Of a stretch of 64,000 bases of DNA, positions 1,348 through 55,180 are shown piece by piece. Numbering within the stretch: position 1 is the first letter of the stretch; every line of letters starts with the position of its first letter. The notes beneath the pieces were generated by a model. It was not told the origin of the DNA. It made no database searches and saw only the letters and a list, made by a program, of their open reading frames with translations. The position numbers were made by a program, and so were the translations under genes. Source of the DNA: Escherichia coli (GTDB lineage Bacteria > Pseudomonadota > Gammaproteobacteria > Enterobacterales > Enterobacteriaceae); assembly GCF_003334305.1 (NCBI RefSeq), contig NZ_QOWS01000014.1; one strand, written 5' to 3'.

Positions 1348-1384
1348 TTGACGCTGCAAGGCTCTATACGCATAATGCGCCCCG
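1348..1384 (+). promoter_or_regulatory. Putative sigma70 promoter of the tRNA operon, stringent type
   Basis: TTGACG at 1348-1353, 17-nt spacer, CATAAT at 1371-1376, then GC-rich discriminator GCGCCCCGC, about 40 nt upstream of the first tRNA. Confidence 0.55.
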
Positions 1385-1416: not shown

Positions 1417-1493
1417 GGCTACGTAGCTCAGTTGGTTAGAGCACATCACTCATAATGATGGGGTCACAGGTTCGAATCCCGTCGTAGCCACCA
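1417..1493 (+). tRNA. metT: tRNA-Met (elongator, anticodon CAU)
   Basis: 77 nt GGCTACGTAGCTCAGTTGGTTAGAGCACATCACTCATAATGATGGGGTCACAGGTTCGAATCCCGTCGTAGCCACCA with encoded CCA. Confidence 0.95.
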
Positions 1494-1502
1494 TCTTTTT
1501 TT

Positions 1503-1587
1503 GCGGGAGTGGCGAAATTGGTAGACGCACCAGATTTAGGTTCTGGCGCCGCAAGGTGTGCGAGTTCAAGTCTCGCCTCCCGCACCA
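1503..1587 (+). tRNA. leuW: tRNA-Leu (anticodon UAG)
   Basis: 85 nt GCGGGAGTGGCGAAATTGGTAGACGCACCAGATTTAGGTTCTGG...CGCACCA with long variable arm and encoded CCA. Confidence 0.95.
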
Positions 1588-1610
1588 TTCACCAGAAAGC
1601 GTTGTACGGA

Positions 1611-1685
1611 TGGGGTATCGCCAAGCGGTAAGGCACCGGTTTTTGATACCGGCATTCCCTGGTTCGAATCCAGGTACCCCAGCCA
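1611..1685 (+). tRNA. glnU: tRNA-Gln (anticodon UUG)
   Basis: 75 nt TGGGGTATCGCCAAGCGGTAAGGCACCGGTTTTTGATACCGG...CCCCAGCCA; anticodon loop TTTTGAT. Confidence 0.95.
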
Positions 1686-1700
1686 TCGAAGAAACAATCT

Positions 1701-1777
1701 GGCTACGTAGCTCAGTTGGTTAGAGCACATCACTCATAATGATGGGGTCACAGGTTCGAATCCCGTCGTAGCCACCA
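1701..1777 (+). tRNA. metU: tRNA-Met (elongator, anticodon CAU), second copy
   Basis: Sequence identical to the copy at 1417-1493. Confidence 0.95.
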
Positions 1778-1825
1778 AATTCTGAATGTGTCGAATACGT
1801 TCGGCAAATTCAAAAACCAATTTGT

Positions 1826-1900
1826 TGGGGTATCGCCAAGCGGTAAGGCACCGGATTCTGATTCCGGCATTCCGAGGTTCGAATCCTCGTACCCCAGCCA
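1826..1900 (+). tRNA. glnV: tRNA-Gln (anticodon CUG)
   Basis: 75 nt TGGGGTATCGCCAAGCGGTAAGGCACCGGATTCTGATTCCGG...CCCCAGCCA; anticodon loop ATTCTGATT. Confidence 0.95.
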
Positions 1901-1906
1901 CATTAA

Positions 1907-1938
1907 AAAAGCTCGCTTCGGCGAGCTTTTTGCTTTTC
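1907..1938 (+). terminator. Intrinsic terminator of the tRNA operon
   Basis: Hairpin aaaagctcgc-ttcg-gcgagctttt followed by tgcttttc. Confidence 0.8.
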
Positions 1939-1944
1939 TGCGTT

Positions 1945-2053: not shown

Positions 2054-3229
2054 CTACAACCCTAACGCATATTTCAGCGCCTGACGTTTCAACACGCCAG
2101 CACGCTCTGCCGCCATTAACCCGAGATTACGCACAAAACGCAGCGGCGGCAGATTATTACTGAATCCGGCATAAAACAGATCCATACCACTTTGCATAAT
2201 GAAGTTATCCGCCATGCGCCGCATCTGGTAACGCTTGAGGACAGGATAACTGGCCCACGCTTCACCGTAGCTGCGGGCATTCACCAGAACATCAATCAGG
2301 GCATCGACATCACGATAACCAAGATTCACCCCCTGCCCCGCCAGCGGATGGATGGTATGCGCGGCATCGCCCACCAGCGCAAGCCCCGGCTGCACATACT
2401 GCAACGCATGTCGGCGCGTCAGCGGAAACGCACCAGCGGCAAGCGGTGTAACGTAACCCAGACGCGACGGGAAATGCTTCGCGATTTCCGCCTGGAGTTG
2501 CGCCATATTCATATTCTGCAACTGGCGAATACGTACCGGAGAGTCATACCACACCAGCGATGCCCAGTTATCAAACAACGGCAGAAACGCACGCGGTCCG
2601 TCCGGGGTAAATTGCTGCCAGGTGCTGTCGCCGGGATCGTTCTCACACTGTACGCTAATCAACATACACGACTGCGCATACTGCCAGGCATGAACGCCAA
2701 TTCCCGCCATCTGCCGCACCTGCGAATTTGCGCCGTCAGCACCAATCACCAGCTTCGCGCGAATCACTTCACCGCCCTTCAGTTCCAGCTCCTGAAGATC
2801 ATTATCTCGATGTAATGCAATCAGCGAGCCTGGCACACGTAACGTTACTTTCGGATGAGCTTCCAGCGCCTGCCACAATGCCTGTTGCAGGACGGTGTTT
2901 TCCACCATATAGCCAAGCAGCGGCAGCTTAAGTTCAGCGGCGTCAAACATCACATGCGCCGTTTCCCACTCCCACGTTTCCAGTCTGCGGTAAGGATGGC
3001 AACGCATAGCCTGTACTGCATCCCAGACCCCTAACCCTTTAAGCAATGATACCGATGCGGCGCTGATCGCCGAGATCCGCACGTCCGGTTGGCTATCAGC
3101 GACAAACGGTGCAGGTTCTGCGTGCTCGATCACCGTTACCGAAAATCCGTGCTGTGCCAGCCCCAGCGCCAGTGCGCCGCCGACCATTCCTCCGCCGACA
3201 ATGGCAATTTCCGTTGGTTGATTTGTCAT
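2054..3229 (-). CDS. ubiF: 2-octaprenyl-3-methyl-6-methoxy-1,4-benzoquinol hydroxylase (FAD-dependent)
   Basis: Track ORF 2054..3235 begins with TTG; the ATG at 3229 gives MTNQPTEIAIVGGGMVGG (FAD-binding GxGxxG), 391 aa. Confidence 0.9.
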   Translation of the reverse strand: MTNQPTEIAIVGGGMVGGALALGLAQHGFSVTVIEHAEPAPFVADSQPDVRISAISAASVSLLKGLGVWDAVQAMRCHPYRRLETWEWETAHVMFDAAELKLPLLGYMVENTVLQQALWQALEAHPKVTLRVPGSLIALHRDNDLQELELKGGEVIRAKLVIGADGANSQVRQMAGIGVHAWQYAQSCMLISVQCENDPGDSTWQQFTPDGPRAFLPLFDNWASLVWYDSPVRIRQLQNMNMAQLQAEIAKHFPSRLGYVTPLAAGAFPLTRRHALQYVQPGLALVGDAAHTIHPLAGQGVNLGYRDVDALIDVLVNARSYGEAWASYPVLKRYQMRRMADNFIMQSGMDLFYAGFSNNLPPLRFVRNLGLMAAERAGVLKRQALKYALGL

Positions 3230-3374
3230 GGTCAATCATCCTGTTAGCAATATGCTTTAAGTTTACAGGATTTTTACCCCCAAGGGCTGATAACGCTCAT
3301 ACTGGTCACAACGGCAGCAAAGCATTACACTATGCGCCCTGCATTCCTGGCTACTATTTCGCAAGAGCAAGTCG

Positions 3375-4799
3375 ATGACCAAAAAACTCCATATTAAAAC
3401 CTGGGGCTGTCAGATGAACGAGTACGATTCATCGAAGATGGCCGATCTGCTGGATGCCACCCACGGCTATCAACTGACCGACGTGGCGGAAGAAGCGGAT
3501 GTGCTGCTGCTGAACACCTGCTCAATCCGCGAGAAGGCTCAGGAAAAAGTCTTCCATCAGTTGGGTCGCTGGAAACTGTTAAAAGAGAAGAATCCAGACC
3601 TGATTATCGGCGTCGGTGGCTGCGTGGCATCGCAAGAAGGCGAGCACATTCGCCAGCGCGCCCACTATGTCGATATTATTTTTGGGCCGCAAACGCTGCA
3701 CCGTCTGCCGGAGATGATCAACTCCGTGCGCGGCGACCGCAGCCCGGTTGTAGATATCAGCTTCCCGGAAATCGAGAAGTTTGACCGTCTACCGGAACCG
3801 CGCGCCGAAGGGCCGACCGCGTTTGTCTCCATCATGGAAGGCTGCAATAAATATTGTACCTACTGCGTGGTGCCTTACACCCGTGGTGAAGAGGTAAGCC
3901 GTCCGTCTGACGATATTCTGTTTGAGATTGCCCAGCTTGCTGCTCAGGGCGTGCGTGAAGTCAACCTGCTCGGTCAGAACGTGAACGCCTGGCGTGGTGA
4001 AAACTACGACGGCACCACCGGATCGTTTGCCGATCTGCTGCGTCTGGTTGCTGCGATCGACGGGATCGATCGTATTCGCTTTACCACCAGCCATCCGATC
4101 GAATTCACCGACGATATCATCGAAGTGTACCGCGACACGCCTGAGCTGGTGAGCTTCCTGCATCTGCCGGTACAAAGCGGTTCCGATCGCATTCTGAACC
4201 TGATGGGCCGTACTCACACGGCGCTGGAGTACAAAGCGATCATCCGTAAACTGCGTGCGGCGCGTCCGGATATTCAGATCAGTTCTGACTTCATTGTTGG
4301 CTTCCCTGGCGAAACCACCGAAGACTTCGAGAAAACGATGAAGCTGATTGCCGACGTCAATTTCGACATGAGCTACAGCTTTATCTTCTCTGCACGTCCG
4401 GGGACGCCCGCCGCCGATATGGTGGATGATGTTCCGGAAGAAGAGAAGAAGCAGCGTCTGTATATTCTGCAAGAGCGCATTAATCAGCAAGCGATGGCGT
4501 GGAGCCGCCGGATGCTCGGCACCACCCAGCGTATTCTGGTAGAAGGGACTTCGCGTAAGAGCATCATGGAGCTTTCCGGGCGTACCGAAAATAACCGCGT
4601 GGTCAACTTCGAGGGCACACCGGATATGATCGGTAAATTCGTCGATGTAGAAATTACCGACGTCTACCCGAACTCTCTGCGCGGTAAAGTGGTGCGTACT
4701 GAAGATGAAATGGGTCTGCGCGTGGCAGAAACACCGGAATCGGTGATTGCCCGTACCCGCAAAGAAAACGACCTTGGCGTGGGTTATTATCAGCCGTAA
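3375..4799 (+). CDS. miaB: tRNA-i6A37 methylthiotransferase (radical SAM)
   Basis: 474 aa; CNKYCTYC radical-SAM cysteine motif; ATG at 3375. Confidence 0.95.
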
Positions 4800-18932: not shown

Positions 18933-19636
18933 AGGTCGCTCACATCCTTAAGCGTTACCGGGCATTCAGGCTGGACAGTTAATGGCTGCCAGGGAAGCGT
19001 GGCATAGAAACGATCGCTTCCCGCTGCCAGCTCTTCGAACATCCGACTCCCGGCGCTATCGTATTTGTACAGGGTTAGCGCCTCGCGTAGCGAAGTGTTG
19101 TCTTCGCACTGAGAAGATTGCCAGTAGAGACGTCCTAACGAATAGGCGGAAAAATAGTGCATCCAGCTGTGATAGTAATGGTGAGCTCGTACATAGACGC
19201 ACGATTGCAGCCATAAACTCTCTTCTTCCGTCAGCCAGTTGTTGAGCACACCGACCCGTGACAGAAACCCCATTCGAACATAATCCCAGGCTTTGATTCC
19301 CCCTTCTCCACAGCACATAGCGGTTTGGGCAACGAATTGGGTATAAATCAACCCTCTCTCCGAGCCACCAGCAATTAATGCTTTCCACTCTTCAGGGGAA
19401 GAGCGATGCCATGTCAGATATAAGCCAGCTAAATCATTGGCATGACCATCATCAGTCATCTGATAAATAGTCTGAATTAAATCATCACGATTATTTATTC
19501 CCCAGGATGATGAGAGATCGAATTCTTTTATCCCGGTATACATTTTTGGCGAGTCATGCGCGGGTTTGCAACCCTGATTAAGTATTTCCATGGGCGCAGA
19601 AAGCGCAAAAAGAAGATATTGTTCTTCCTTATTCAT
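18929..19636 (-). CDS. ybeU: DUF1266-family protein
   Basis: 235 aa; ATGA overlap with djlC; paralog of ybeR. Confidence 0.85.
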
Positions 19637-19736
19637 TTGTTAATAATCCCTTAAGTGCATTAACTGACTACTTTTTATTATTGATGAGTATAAACTTGAC
19701 GCTTTCAAAATAAAAAGAAAATCGAAGCATTCACAT

Positions 19737-20291
19737 ATGAATAAAAAATTAATGTATATATTCGCAATATTTATAGTTGCAGCAATTACCTGTATTAGCC
19801 AACCCAAGAAAACAACGTTGCGTGATAAAGCCATGGTGAATTATGCCTTTGATTATTTAAGCTCACCGGGCAGTCTACCGTTTACCACGGCGGCCACGGA
19901 GCTTTCCGCGATTCATGGTCACTCAACGTCGCAATATCGCCTTGGAGAATTTTATCTTCATGGTAGCGACGGTAAACCACTGGATTATACACAGGCGAGA
20001 TACTGGTATGAGCAATCAGCAGAACAGGAAAATCCGCGCGCACAAAGCAAACTGGGGTGGATCTACCTCAAAGGTCTGGGGGTCAAACCCGACACCCGTA
20101 AAGCAATTCTCTGGTATAAGGAAGCAGCTGAACAAGGGTATGCTCATGCTCAATATACTTTAGGTTTGATCTACAGAAATGGCTCAGGTATTAATGTTAA
20201 CCATTATGAATCTCAAAAATGGTTAAAACTGGCCGCCAAACAACATTACAAAAATGCGGAAAGATTACTTGCCGGGCTTCCCGCACATTAA
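19737..20291 (+). CDS. ybeT: Sel1-repeat protein with N-terminal signal/anchor
   Basis: 184 aa; N-terminal hydrophobic segment; repeated Sel1-like motifs ([30 protein letters not shown]). Confidence 0.85.
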
Positions 20292-20300
20292 CGTCGACTG

Positions 20301-21728
20301 TCAACCGAACAGATGGAGTATTTTCCCTATCAAACCAGCAAAGATAAAAATATAGAAAATAATTTTAATGATGCCCAGACAGCCTGGCCCACCATCGTCA
20401 ACGGGCATTGGCTGCGGTTGCGGCTCCGGTTCAACAGTTTGCTTCTCGGTAAAATTCGCCGCCTGAATTAATAATCGACGAATAATTAATGCTTCCAGTG
20501 GACAACGATCTTCTGCATCAAGGCGGCTCACAATCGGCATTAATGATTCTTCGGTTGGTTGGTTCGCCTGCACTAATTGTTTGGCAACTAAATATAATGG
20601 CCATAAGGGATGTTCTGTATCACGCGTGAGTGAGATCCGCGGCTTACGTCCTTTGTGCAAAACCATCTCGACCAGTGAACGCCCCAGAGCAGAGAGTTTT
20701 TCATCGCTGAGTATTTCGTATAAATGAAAACGCGTACGGGCGCTGTCGCCGGGGATATAAAGTAGCGGTTTTCCCTGATCGTTAACCAGTTCACGAGCTT
20801 CAATCATCATCACCACTAACGGGTAATAATCGACCCGATGCTGACGGCACCATTGCAATATTAAAGCATCCGCCTGGGTGGAGGGATACTCGCGCCAGTA
20901 GTCACAAAGTTCTGCCAGCAAGCTTTCGCCTTCTCCACAATAGACGCGTTGTGCGTATTCATAATAACGCGCATCTTCATTATCAGATTCAGCTTCCCGC
21001 CACGACCGGGCGTAATCCAGGAGTTCGGGAATTCCCAGGCGACCTGCGCTATACCAGCGGAGTAAATTTCTGTGCAGTTTTGCATCATCGGGGATAATCA
21101 CTGCGCGATGTTGCGCTAAATACAATGTCAGCCATTCTGGATGCGATGACCAAATCCGAGCGAACATTTGGTAAAAATCGATGGTGTCATTTTGCACGGC
21201 AACGGGCAGATGCAGAATGGTCTGGAAGTTAAAAACATTCCCCTTCGCAATGGCATATAAAAAGGATTCCAGTTCTTCTTCGTCTATTTCCCCGACGTTT
21301 TCCTCCTGCAACCACCGCAATCTTTCTGCTAATAACACCACGCACTCGAAGGATAAATGGGCAGTGTTCATGGCGATTGTGCACAGCGACCAGCGTAATT
21401 CATCAATCTCTTCCATCGAGCAATAATTTAATTGCTGAATGAATCGCTGCCAGGCGGAGGGCAGAAAACGTTCGCTATCAGAGGCAAGTAACGCACGAAA
21501 GGCGAGCAGAATTTCATGTTCTGCTACCTCATATTCTTCTGGTTGCCAAACAGATTTAGCAGGCGACTGCGCAATCCGTAGCGCCTCCTCATACGCCTGA
21601 CGAAGTTGTTTAAAACCCTGCGGATCGGTTTCTGGATGAAAGGACGGTAACAGCGCCAGATAAGCGCGGCGGATAATATCGACGTCAGTCGTTTCCTCTA
21701 TTTCGAGAATCTTCCAGCAATTTTTCAT
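20301..21728 (-). CDS. djlB: J-domain-like membrane-anchored protein
   Basis: 475 aa; N-terminus [39 protein letters not shown] closely matches djlC; C-terminal hydrophobic tail. Confidence 0.9.
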
Positions 21729-22432
21729 AGGTCGCTCATATCCTTAAGCGTTTCCGGGCATGCAGAATAGTAAGCCAATGGTTGCCAGGACAAGGTAGGG
21801 TAATACGCATCATCACTGGCAAATAATTGATAAAACATATCATTGCCGGAATCGTCGTATTCTTTACGCGCTAAGAATTCGCGTAATAACTGCAGATGAT
21901 CATCTTCGGGAGACTGCCAATATTGCCGACCAAAGGTATAACCGGCAAAGTATTGCCGCCAGTTACGATAATAACGTAGAGCCCGTAGATGAATGCGCGA
22001 CTGGATCCATAGACTTTCTTCTTCGCTCAACCAGTTATTAAGTACGCCCATTCGGCTTAAAAAACCCATCCGGACATAATCCCAGGCTTTAATTCCTCCC
22101 TCACCACAGCATTCGGCGGTGCTGGCGACAAATTGCGCATAAGCCTGACCTTGCTCATTTAGTTCAGCAAGATAGTCACGCCATTCACATGGCGAATAAC
22201 GAAACCAGCGGTGATAAAACCCTGCCAACCGAGCGGCATGACCGTTATCGATCATTCGGTGAATTGTGCGCAGCAGGTCATCACGGGCATCAATTCCCCA
22301 GGAGGAAGAAAGGTCAAAAAAGCATGTACCTAAATACATTTTGGGTGATGAATGCGAAGGTAAACAGCATTCATTGCGTATTTCCATCGGAGTGGAAAGT
22401 GCAAACAATATTTTTTGCGACTCCATGTCCAT
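21725..22432 (-). CDS. ybeR: DUF1266-family protein
   Basis: 235 aa; ATGA overlap with djlB; shares the block [20 protein letters not shown] with ybeU. Confidence 0.85.
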
Positions 22433-41595: not shown

Positions 41596-41630
41596 CAAAA
41601 AAAAACCCGCTGATTAAGCGGGTTTTGAAT
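41596..41630. terminator. Hairpin terminator between crcB and cspE
   Basis: aaacccgct-gatt-aagcgggtttt with an A-run upstream and T-run downstream. Confidence 0.7.
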
Positions 41631-41645
41631 TCTTGCTGACGTATC

Positions 41646-41855
41646 TTACAGAGCGATTACGTTTGCAGCAGAAGGGCCTTTGGCACCGTTAGTGATTTCG
41701 AACTCTACGCGCTGACCTTCAGCAAGAGTTTTAAAACCATTAGTCTGGATTGCAGAGAAGTGTACGAACACGTCTTTGCTGCCGTCTTCCGGAGTAATGA
41801 AACCGAATCCTTTGGACTCATTAAACCACTTAACGTTACCTTTAATCTTAGACAT
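41646..41855 (-). CDS. cspE: Cold-shock domain protein
   Basis: Internal start gives [20 protein letters not shown], 69 aa. Confidence 0.95.
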
Positions 41856-42029
41856 CAAAATTACCTTTACATGAAAAATAGACACAAATGCTGTGTCGGT
41901 TACCAGTACACCAATTGTGGTACGCTTTGTCCAGTGCAACTTTACTAAAAAGTGATAAAAGTCGCGTTATTTTTGATGTTACTTATTTTAGCTATTGATT
42001 TTAAAGAAGTTACTAAAACTTCATTTGTC

Positions 42030-42590
42030 TCAAAACTGAAAGCGCATCCAGGCAAAGTACACATTGCCATTGTTGTAGGTACCCGGAATGTAGGTCATCT
42101 GAAAAGTCACTGGGCCATAACCCACGGAGGCCAATGGCAGTAGAACCGGGAGAGGGATGTAATTCCAGTTATCGCGTGCCGTTACGCCAGCGGTGAATCC
42201 CAGACCTAAATGAAAATTTTCATCCGCCAGCGGTCGCCAGGTACTTTCCCATCCGTATCCGGCAATCGGTTCCCATTTGTTCCACGAGTCCTTAAATGCC
42301 ATGGCATACAGGCCATGCCAGTTTCCTTTTTCATCCCAACGCGACAGGCCAAAACCGCCACCCCACGGTCGCTCGTTATAGCGATCGGTTTTTTCTTTGT
42401 CGTAAGCGAAACGTGCATGCCAGGTGATGGCAGGAATATATAAATCATAATGTTCAGGCTGTTGCCAGGTTTGTGCAATATTTTCTCTAAACGTTGTCAT
42501 CCACTCATCTGCGTTAGCAAAAACTTTACCAACGCTGATTAACTGAATAAAAACAAAGGAAAAGATAGCGACATATTTACTCACGTTCAT
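42030..42590 (-). CDS. pagP: Lipid A palmitoyltransferase (outer membrane)
   Basis: Internal start gives [25 protein letters not shown], 186 aa. Confidence 0.9.
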
Positions 42591-54951: not shown

Positions 54952-55180
54952 TCATCTGATTTACAAAACACGCTAATTCGTCTTCCATAAACCGTGACGA
55001 TTAAGAATTATACATAATGCGCTGCATTGAGGAATTCCCTGAATGTGACGCAAATCACTTCAAAGAGTGAGCAACAGTCAGTATCATCATGTGAGTTAAA
55101 CCCTCGCCGCCTGACGGTGAGGGTTTTCTTTTGGGTATGTTTATCTGCGACACTCGCAGTACCGACGACATGGAGTAAAA

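Follow-up and report, generated by a model that had tools for sequence, protein, structure and literature searches.

The cluster of tRNA genes between asnB and ubiF in the 64-kb stretch of Escherichia coli DNA analysed here (the window) holds fewer genes than its K-12 counterpart, and the question it raises is which of the two states came first and whether the difference arose in a cell or in an assembly. Annotation with ARAGORN returned five tRNA genes on the + strand, in the order Met-Leu-Gln(UUG)-Met-Gln(CUG) over positions 1417-1900, and no further tRNA genes in the 64-kb window. They comprise a tRNA-Met (CAT, elongator) equivalent to metT (1417-1493; Rfam 71.1 bits), a tRNA-Leu (TAG) equivalent to leuW (1503-1587; 57.6 bits), a single tRNA-Gln (TTG) at 1611-1685, a second elongator tRNA-Met (CAT) equivalent to metU (1701-1777; 71.1 bits), and a single tRNA-Gln (CTG) at 1826-1900, and each Gln block is thus present once (n = 1 for UUG, n = 1 for CUG). 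All five match the Rfam tRNA model at 57.6-71.1 bits against a gathering score of 29, and with E <= 8e-10 the matches are not due to chance. Each gene is string-identical to its counterpart in K-12 W3110 (metT, leuW, glnU/W, metU and glnV/X, respectively).

The operon lies between asnB and ubiF, with neighbours as in K-12. Upstream is the 3' part of asnB, encoding asparagine synthase B (1-1036, + strand; annotated at 52-1716 of the L003 record of strain A7, its end mapping to window position 1036), and downstream is the convergent ubiF (2054-3229, - strand; 2955-4130 of the same record, mapped through the alignment at 100% identity). A consensus scan identified a candidate sigma-70-like promoter at 1348-1376 (+ strand), composed of TTGACG, a 17-nt spacer and CATAAT, followed by the G+C-rich gcgccccgc. 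It matches the consensus at 10 of 12 positions, is the same in sequence in K-12 W3110 and in strain GF66.1, and is the putative promoter of the operon. The scan also identified a Rho-independent terminator-like hairpin at 1906-1941 (+ strand), with an 11-pair stem, a GC-rich core and a T-rich tail, whose sequence is the same in K-12. The metT operon has a distal Rho-independent terminator, which is removed from the transcript mainly by RNase E before RNase P separates the tRNAs (PMC2241853). No gene for elongator tRNA-Met, Leu(UAG), Gln(UUG) or Gln(CUG) lies outside its transcription unit, which is essential by experiment (PMC11480407); the experiment covered the unit as a whole, and the essentiality of each single tRNA is a prediction of the same study. 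The locus is the canonical, essential metT-leuW-glnU/W-metU-glnV/X operon, with a single putative promoter and a single terminator-like hairpin, in a contracted copy-number state. If real, the five-gene operon would stay functional, since it keeps the promoter, the terminator and a gene for each of the four tRNA species, and the sole consequence would be a halving of tRNA-Gln gene dosage from four genes to two, with processing as for the seven-gene transcript.

We then compared the locus with that of K-12. The original prediction was that the operon carries five genes against seven in K-12, with one Gln(UUG) and one Gln(CUG) gene where K-12 has tandem pairs, and both parts proved exact, down to coordinates and gene order. 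In K-12 W3110, the same locus between asnB and ubiF carries seven genes, Met-Leu-Gln-Gln-Met-Gln-Gln, and alignment to this operon shows the window to be without one 109-bp and one 112-bp unit. Position, gene order, promoter, terminator and tRNA sequences are shared with the K-12 operon, whereas the window has five genes instead of seven, lacks the intra-pair spacers, and has flanks that are only ~98% identical. That the source is not K-12, as also proposed, is borne out by the ~98% identity of the whole window to W3110, by a rhomboid-family gene at the site that holds IS5 in K-12, and by 100% identity to strain A7. Taken by itself, the number of tRNA genes would say little against K-12, because the assemblies of the laboratory strains ME8067 and MC1061 also show reduced counts; that of ME8067, with flanks ~99.9% like the K-12 haplotype, shows six genes versus seven in W3110.

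The rhomboid-family gene lies at 9065-10942 (- strand), between lnt and gltI, and encodes a 625-aa rhomboid-family intramembrane serine protease, with additional beta-propeller domain matches that are weak or faint. Its site varies by strain, being occupied by IS5 in K-12 W3110, carrying a frameshifted gene in E. coli W, and lacking the gene in GF66.1.

The anatomy of the difference was resolved by three-way alignment, in which exactly one unit of each Gln pair is missing. The first missing segment (109 bp) consists of a tRNA-Gln(UUG) gene and the 34-nt glnU-glnW spacer, TCTTCTTCGAGTAAGCGGTTCACCGCCCGGTTAT, and the second (112 bp) of a tRNA-Gln(CUG) gene and the 37-nt glnV-glnX spacer, ATTTATTCAAGACGCTTACATCGTAAGTGCGCCCAGT; neither spacer occurs anywhere in the 64-kb window. 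Accordingly, the remaining tRNA-Gln (TTG) is preceded by the sequence that lies upstream of glnU and followed by the one that lies downstream of glnW, and the remaining tRNA-Gln (CTG) is likewise preceded by glnV's upstream sequence and followed by glnX's downstream sequence. In the seven-gene form, each pair consists of perfect direct repeats, identical over 77 nt and with periods of 109 and 112 bp, and what is lost from each pair is exactly one repeat period, such that removing either copy from the A7 sequence yields the window. A single event removing both units was considered and rejected, as metU lies intact between them. The metT/metU repeat itself is also intact in the window; its 78 identical nucleotides lie 393 nt apart when seven genes are present.

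Next, we asked which state is ancestral. Species-representative genomes of Enterobacterales were scanned for the 3' half of leuW and 120 loci were annotated with ARAGORN. The commonest state is seven genes in the canonical order, found at 40 loci (e.g., in E. albertii, Citrobacter, Enterobacter, Klebsiella, Cedecea and Kosakonia), followed by two UUG genes with one CUG gene at 30 loci (e.g., in Yersinia, Photorhabdus, Xenorhabdus, Serratia and Pectobacterium), one UUG gene with two CUG genes at 10 loci (e.g., in Erwinia, Siccibacter and Pseudescherichia), and three CUG genes with two UUG genes at 5 loci (e.g., in Superficieibacter electus, Pantoea sp. Mb-10 and Pluralibacter sp. UBA7423). The five-gene arrangement of the window was present at 1 of the 120 loci, in a Pluralibacter metagenome-assembled genome. 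The copy number at the two Gln positions is therefore changeable over evolutionary time, and six-gene states look fixed in whole genera, e.g., Yersinia, Photorhabdus and Erwinia. A different operon architecture was seen at nine loci, in Budvicia, Providencia, Proteus and others, and at three more, in Zobellella and another genome. Examples are Met-Leu-Gln-Gln-Met-Leu-Gln and Met-Gln-Gln-Met-Leu-Gln, in which all Gln genes are UUG, a second leuW is present and the cluster has no Gln(CUG), pointing to duplication of a larger Met-Leu-Gln unit.

Within the species, junction-specific queries containing the conserved spacers (at least 95% identity) detected the glnU-glnW junction in 5,342 of 5,426 complete E. 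coli genomes (98.5%; absent in 84, 1.5%) and the glnV-glnX junction in 5,268 (97.1%; absent in 158, 2.9%). Both duplications are thus kept in at least 95.5% of complete genomes, and up to 3-4 junction copies in some genomes show that expansions occur too. To profile the reduced states, we read the 60 best rows obtained with the five-gene arrangement of the window as query one by one. Among these 60 best rows, 13 genomes share the five-gene arrangement (0.24% of 5,426), about 10 have still fewer genes, and many have six (one UUG and two CUG, verified in C10 and strain 1943). GF43, GF60 and AVS0543 are among the assemblies with five genes or fewer. Counting five-gene genomes by a single place covering at least 80% of the query was rejected, because pieces were joined for some six-gene genomes, though not for seven-gene ones; rows H84-H100, five-gene by this measure, have six genes.

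Together, these data show that seven genes is the ancestral state for Escherichia and its relatives and that the window represents a derived contraction, since paired Gln genes are the rule across E. coli, including the clone to which the window belongs, and in related genera. The opposite reading, that five genes is ancestral or common and that K-12 carries lineage-specific duplications, draws on nothing beyond the bare difference from K-12. It conflicts with the junction counts, with the seven-gene order shared by E. albertii, Citrobacter, Enterobacter, Klebsiella and others (five genes at 1 of 120 loci), and with the seven genes of the window's own clone, and we assign it next to no probability. 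The original prediction had named repeat collapse or expansion. Its first half agrees with the seven-gene norm, whereas expansion is contradicted by the 5,342 and 5,268 of 5,426 genomes with the respective junctions and by the seven genes of A7. Five genes being the common state, which had been put forward as grounds for abandoning the prediction, is not what the 13 of 5,426 genomes (among the 60 best rows) indicate.

The 19.9 kb adjacent to the operon match E. coli A7 (NZ_CP028767.1), isolated from orangutan faeces, at 100%. Local BLAST of the window against the A7 region returned 0 mismatches and 0 gaps over 1-1687, 1824-25000 and 21862-64000. The complete assembly of A7 carries the canonical seven genes, and subtracting one unit per Gln pair from it reproduces window positions 1-25000 exactly, the remainder to 64000 again having 0 mismatches and 0 gaps. 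Seven genes are also present in each of the five closest relatives of A7 checked (H15, TUM1887, 41, NCTC9088 and A28), and in the independent draft GCA_012721455.1, one of ten contigs from the lnt look-up, in which no difference from the window was seen across ~19 kb. Three ORFs run across the single-copy Gln genes, with products of 125, 55 and 74 aa, and none of these products has an exact match on record. Because A7, its five relatives and GCA_012721455.1 all have seven genes, the contraction is private to the window sequence.

These results leave two places in which one period could have been lost from each pair. Closely spaced direct repeats of ~77 nt are biologically unstable, owing to RecA-independent slipped misalignment. 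In either setting, out-of-register pairing of the 77-nt direct repeats would remove one period without a scar or a new junction, and would leave, in each pair, what precedes the first copy joined to what follows the second. Sequence alone cannot separate a cellular event from an assembler event. In the cellular case, a strain very recently descended from the A7 clone, or a sibling of that clone, would have lost one copy of each tRNA-Gln pair by replication slippage or unequal sister-chromatid exchange between 77-nt repeats only 34-37 nt apart, and the strain would be viable, as its tRNA-Gln genes would fall from four to two with all four tRNA species kept. In the other case, the shift in register would have taken place in silico, with an assembler or consensus step passing over the two very short loops that separate identical tRNA-Gln copies (spacers of 34 and 37 nt), and the strain itself would, like A7, carry seven genes. 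We consider assembly or consensus collapse, rather than an event in the cell, the probable origin of the contraction, and a genuine cellular loss a serious but lesser possibility.

Several observations speak for loss in the cell. The anatomy is exactly what slippage or unequal exchange gives, with one period lost scarlessly from each pair; the lethal Met-Met contraction is absent and the four tRNA species are retained. Copy number varies at the same two positions among species representatives (40, 30, 10 and 5 loci for the four states described above), expansions to as many as 3-4 junction copies per genome are seen within E. coli, and real contractions of the Gln pairs clearly exist in nature, which counts against collapse. 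Laboratory lineages provide further examples of six-gene genomes that have a seven-gene relative or ancestor, in the pairs W and LY180, and W3110 and ME8067. E. coli W (NC_017635.1) has seven genes and its engineered and evolved laboratory descendant LY180 shows six, with one Gln-UUG; AQ15 and SL112, sequence-identical to LY180, also show six. In these three, either the pair contracted within the time span of laboratory propagation or an artefact was carried along by reference-guided assembly. Finally, FDAARGOS_1077, ECCTRSRTH03, CEA106S and STK39-3-E all have five genes and nearly identical flanks and come from different sources. A 6-kb query did not establish a single clade for the five-gene genomes of phylogroup-A type, as their flanks are too conserved to separate them. 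Two other five-gene genomes, GF66.1 and strain 2824, differ by 0.3% over 21 kb and are not one clone.

A precedent for cellular loss is the duplicate tyrosine tRNA genes tyrT-tyrV of E. coli, where one copy is said to be lost by unequal recombination in what is regarded as a classic case. The likeness lies in perfect direct repeats of tRNA length, a short spacer, and the loss of one period with no new junction; the window differs in that two separate pairs are contracted in one operon, and in being known here from assembled sequence. A looser parallel is offered by Pseudomonas fluorescens SBW25, where tRNA gene dosage is likewise reported to shift fast through recombination, but by large tandem duplications that raise dosage under selection and not by losses of ~110 bp from an existing pair (PMC7661048, PMC10954465). 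Our search of the literature on copy-number variation of glnV/glnX retrieved nothing specific.

Other observations speak against loss in the cell. Two separate pairs are contracted in a 64-kb sequence that otherwise equals A7, and either the assembler erred in one systematic way or two biological events took place independently. A cellular origin thus requires two such events with 0 substitutions beside them. Every other assembly of the clone that we inspected has seven genes, namely six complete genomes (A7 and the five relatives) and the assembly identical over ~19 kb. In addition, that at least 95.5% of E. coli keep both duplications implies a short life for contracted alleles, and public genomes include some contracted states that are clearly artefactual.

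The last point is illustrated by assemblies labelled complete. At the metT locus, MC1061 (NZ_CP195014.1), GF47 (NZ_CP172169.1) and AVS0947 (NZ_CP124460.1) have only Met and Gln(CUG), and ST648 (NZ_CP008697.1) has Met-Leu-Gln(CUG); the query matched one place in each of the four records, with no copy of leuW or Gln(UUG) elsewhere. Because the essential operon holds all copies of the absent tRNAs, these reduced states are almost certainly assembly collapses. By query match rows alone, HS13-1, IPCEC48, WB61 and IAL7250 show a similar reduced state. Reduced states also cluster by sequencing project: the 60 rows include seven GF, eleven AVS and three IPCEC strains of unrelated backgrounds, and each of these projects also has one non-viable tRNA state, a pattern that suggests pipeline-specific collapse. 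(The GF strains are from chicken meat and the AVS strains from Swiss water.) Any pipeline able to collapse repeats that lie 393 nt from each other will do so still more readily with adjacent pairs.

The window resembles known cases of short tandem repeat collapse, in that the product is indistinguishable from a real unit deletion, other assemblies of the clone are uncollapsed, and other public assemblies are collapsed at the metT locus to non-viable states. It differs in that it was read from assembled sequence alone and in that the neighbouring 78-nt Met repeat was resolved. The latter is an argument against collapse within the window itself: the metT/metU repeat is equally long and was resolved correctly, so the assembler could recognise repeats of such length. 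Most draft assemblies of related species also resolve their tandem pairs, which likewise counts against collapse.

The frequencies at which the two losses coincide provide an additional line of evidence. If the junctions were lost independently, ~2.4 of the complete E. coli genomes would be expected to lack both, against 13 with five genes and about 10 with smaller sets observed, an excess that suggests a shared technical cause. The same excess of double contractions (13 or more observed versus ~2.4 expected) could be taken as a sign of adaptation. On this account, a sub-case of genuine loss in the cell, the double contraction is real and selection lowered tRNA-Gln dosage in slow-growth or nutrient-poor niches, where redundant genes are costly. 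Earlier work in which redundant tRNA genes paid off in rich media but carried a cost when nutrients were limiting (summarised in PMC11480407) would be compatible with it. However, the excess is more simply explained by project-specific artefacts together with shared descent, the same listings contain non-viable states and reduced states that cluster by project, and the eLife study on the costs of redundancy contains no Gln data. We regard selection for lower dosage in this strain as extremely improbable, and it is very unlikely that the five-gene state is one instance of a recurrent, favoured halving of tRNA-Gln dosage in natural E. coli lineages. Because at least 95.5% of strains keep both duplications, the distribution suggests that halved tRNA-Gln dosage is mildly deleterious in fast growth.

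On either origin, the contraction carries little biological weight, as no tRNA species is lost from the contracted operon. Both the metT operon with its tandem duplicates and the tendency of such repeats to be unstable are textbook knowledge, and the contraction is rare but trivial. If true, it would amount to a halving of tRNA-Gln dosage within one clone and would fit purifying selection that keeps the duplicates in at least 95% of strains. Of wider practical relevance is that tRNA gene counts at the metT locus are unreliable in public assemblies, including RefSeq genomes labelled complete, and surveys of tRNA copy number in E. coli consequently need validation at the level of reads.

Elsewhere in the window, the region at ~17480-22430 carries, by the A7 annotation, djlC-ybeU and djlB-ybeR on either side of ybeT, adjoining hscC. 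Each of the two pairs consists of a J-domain co-chaperone and a DUF1266 protein and they look paralogue-like by annotation; there are no differences from A7. Matches at the Rfam gathering level were obtained for sroC (12301-12463, + strand, downstream of gltI), for a cspA-type 5' UTR thermoregulator (41598-42040, - strand, at cspE), for the rnk leader (55027-55135, + strand) and for STnc70 (60274-60367, - strand), all of which are expected for this region of E. coli.
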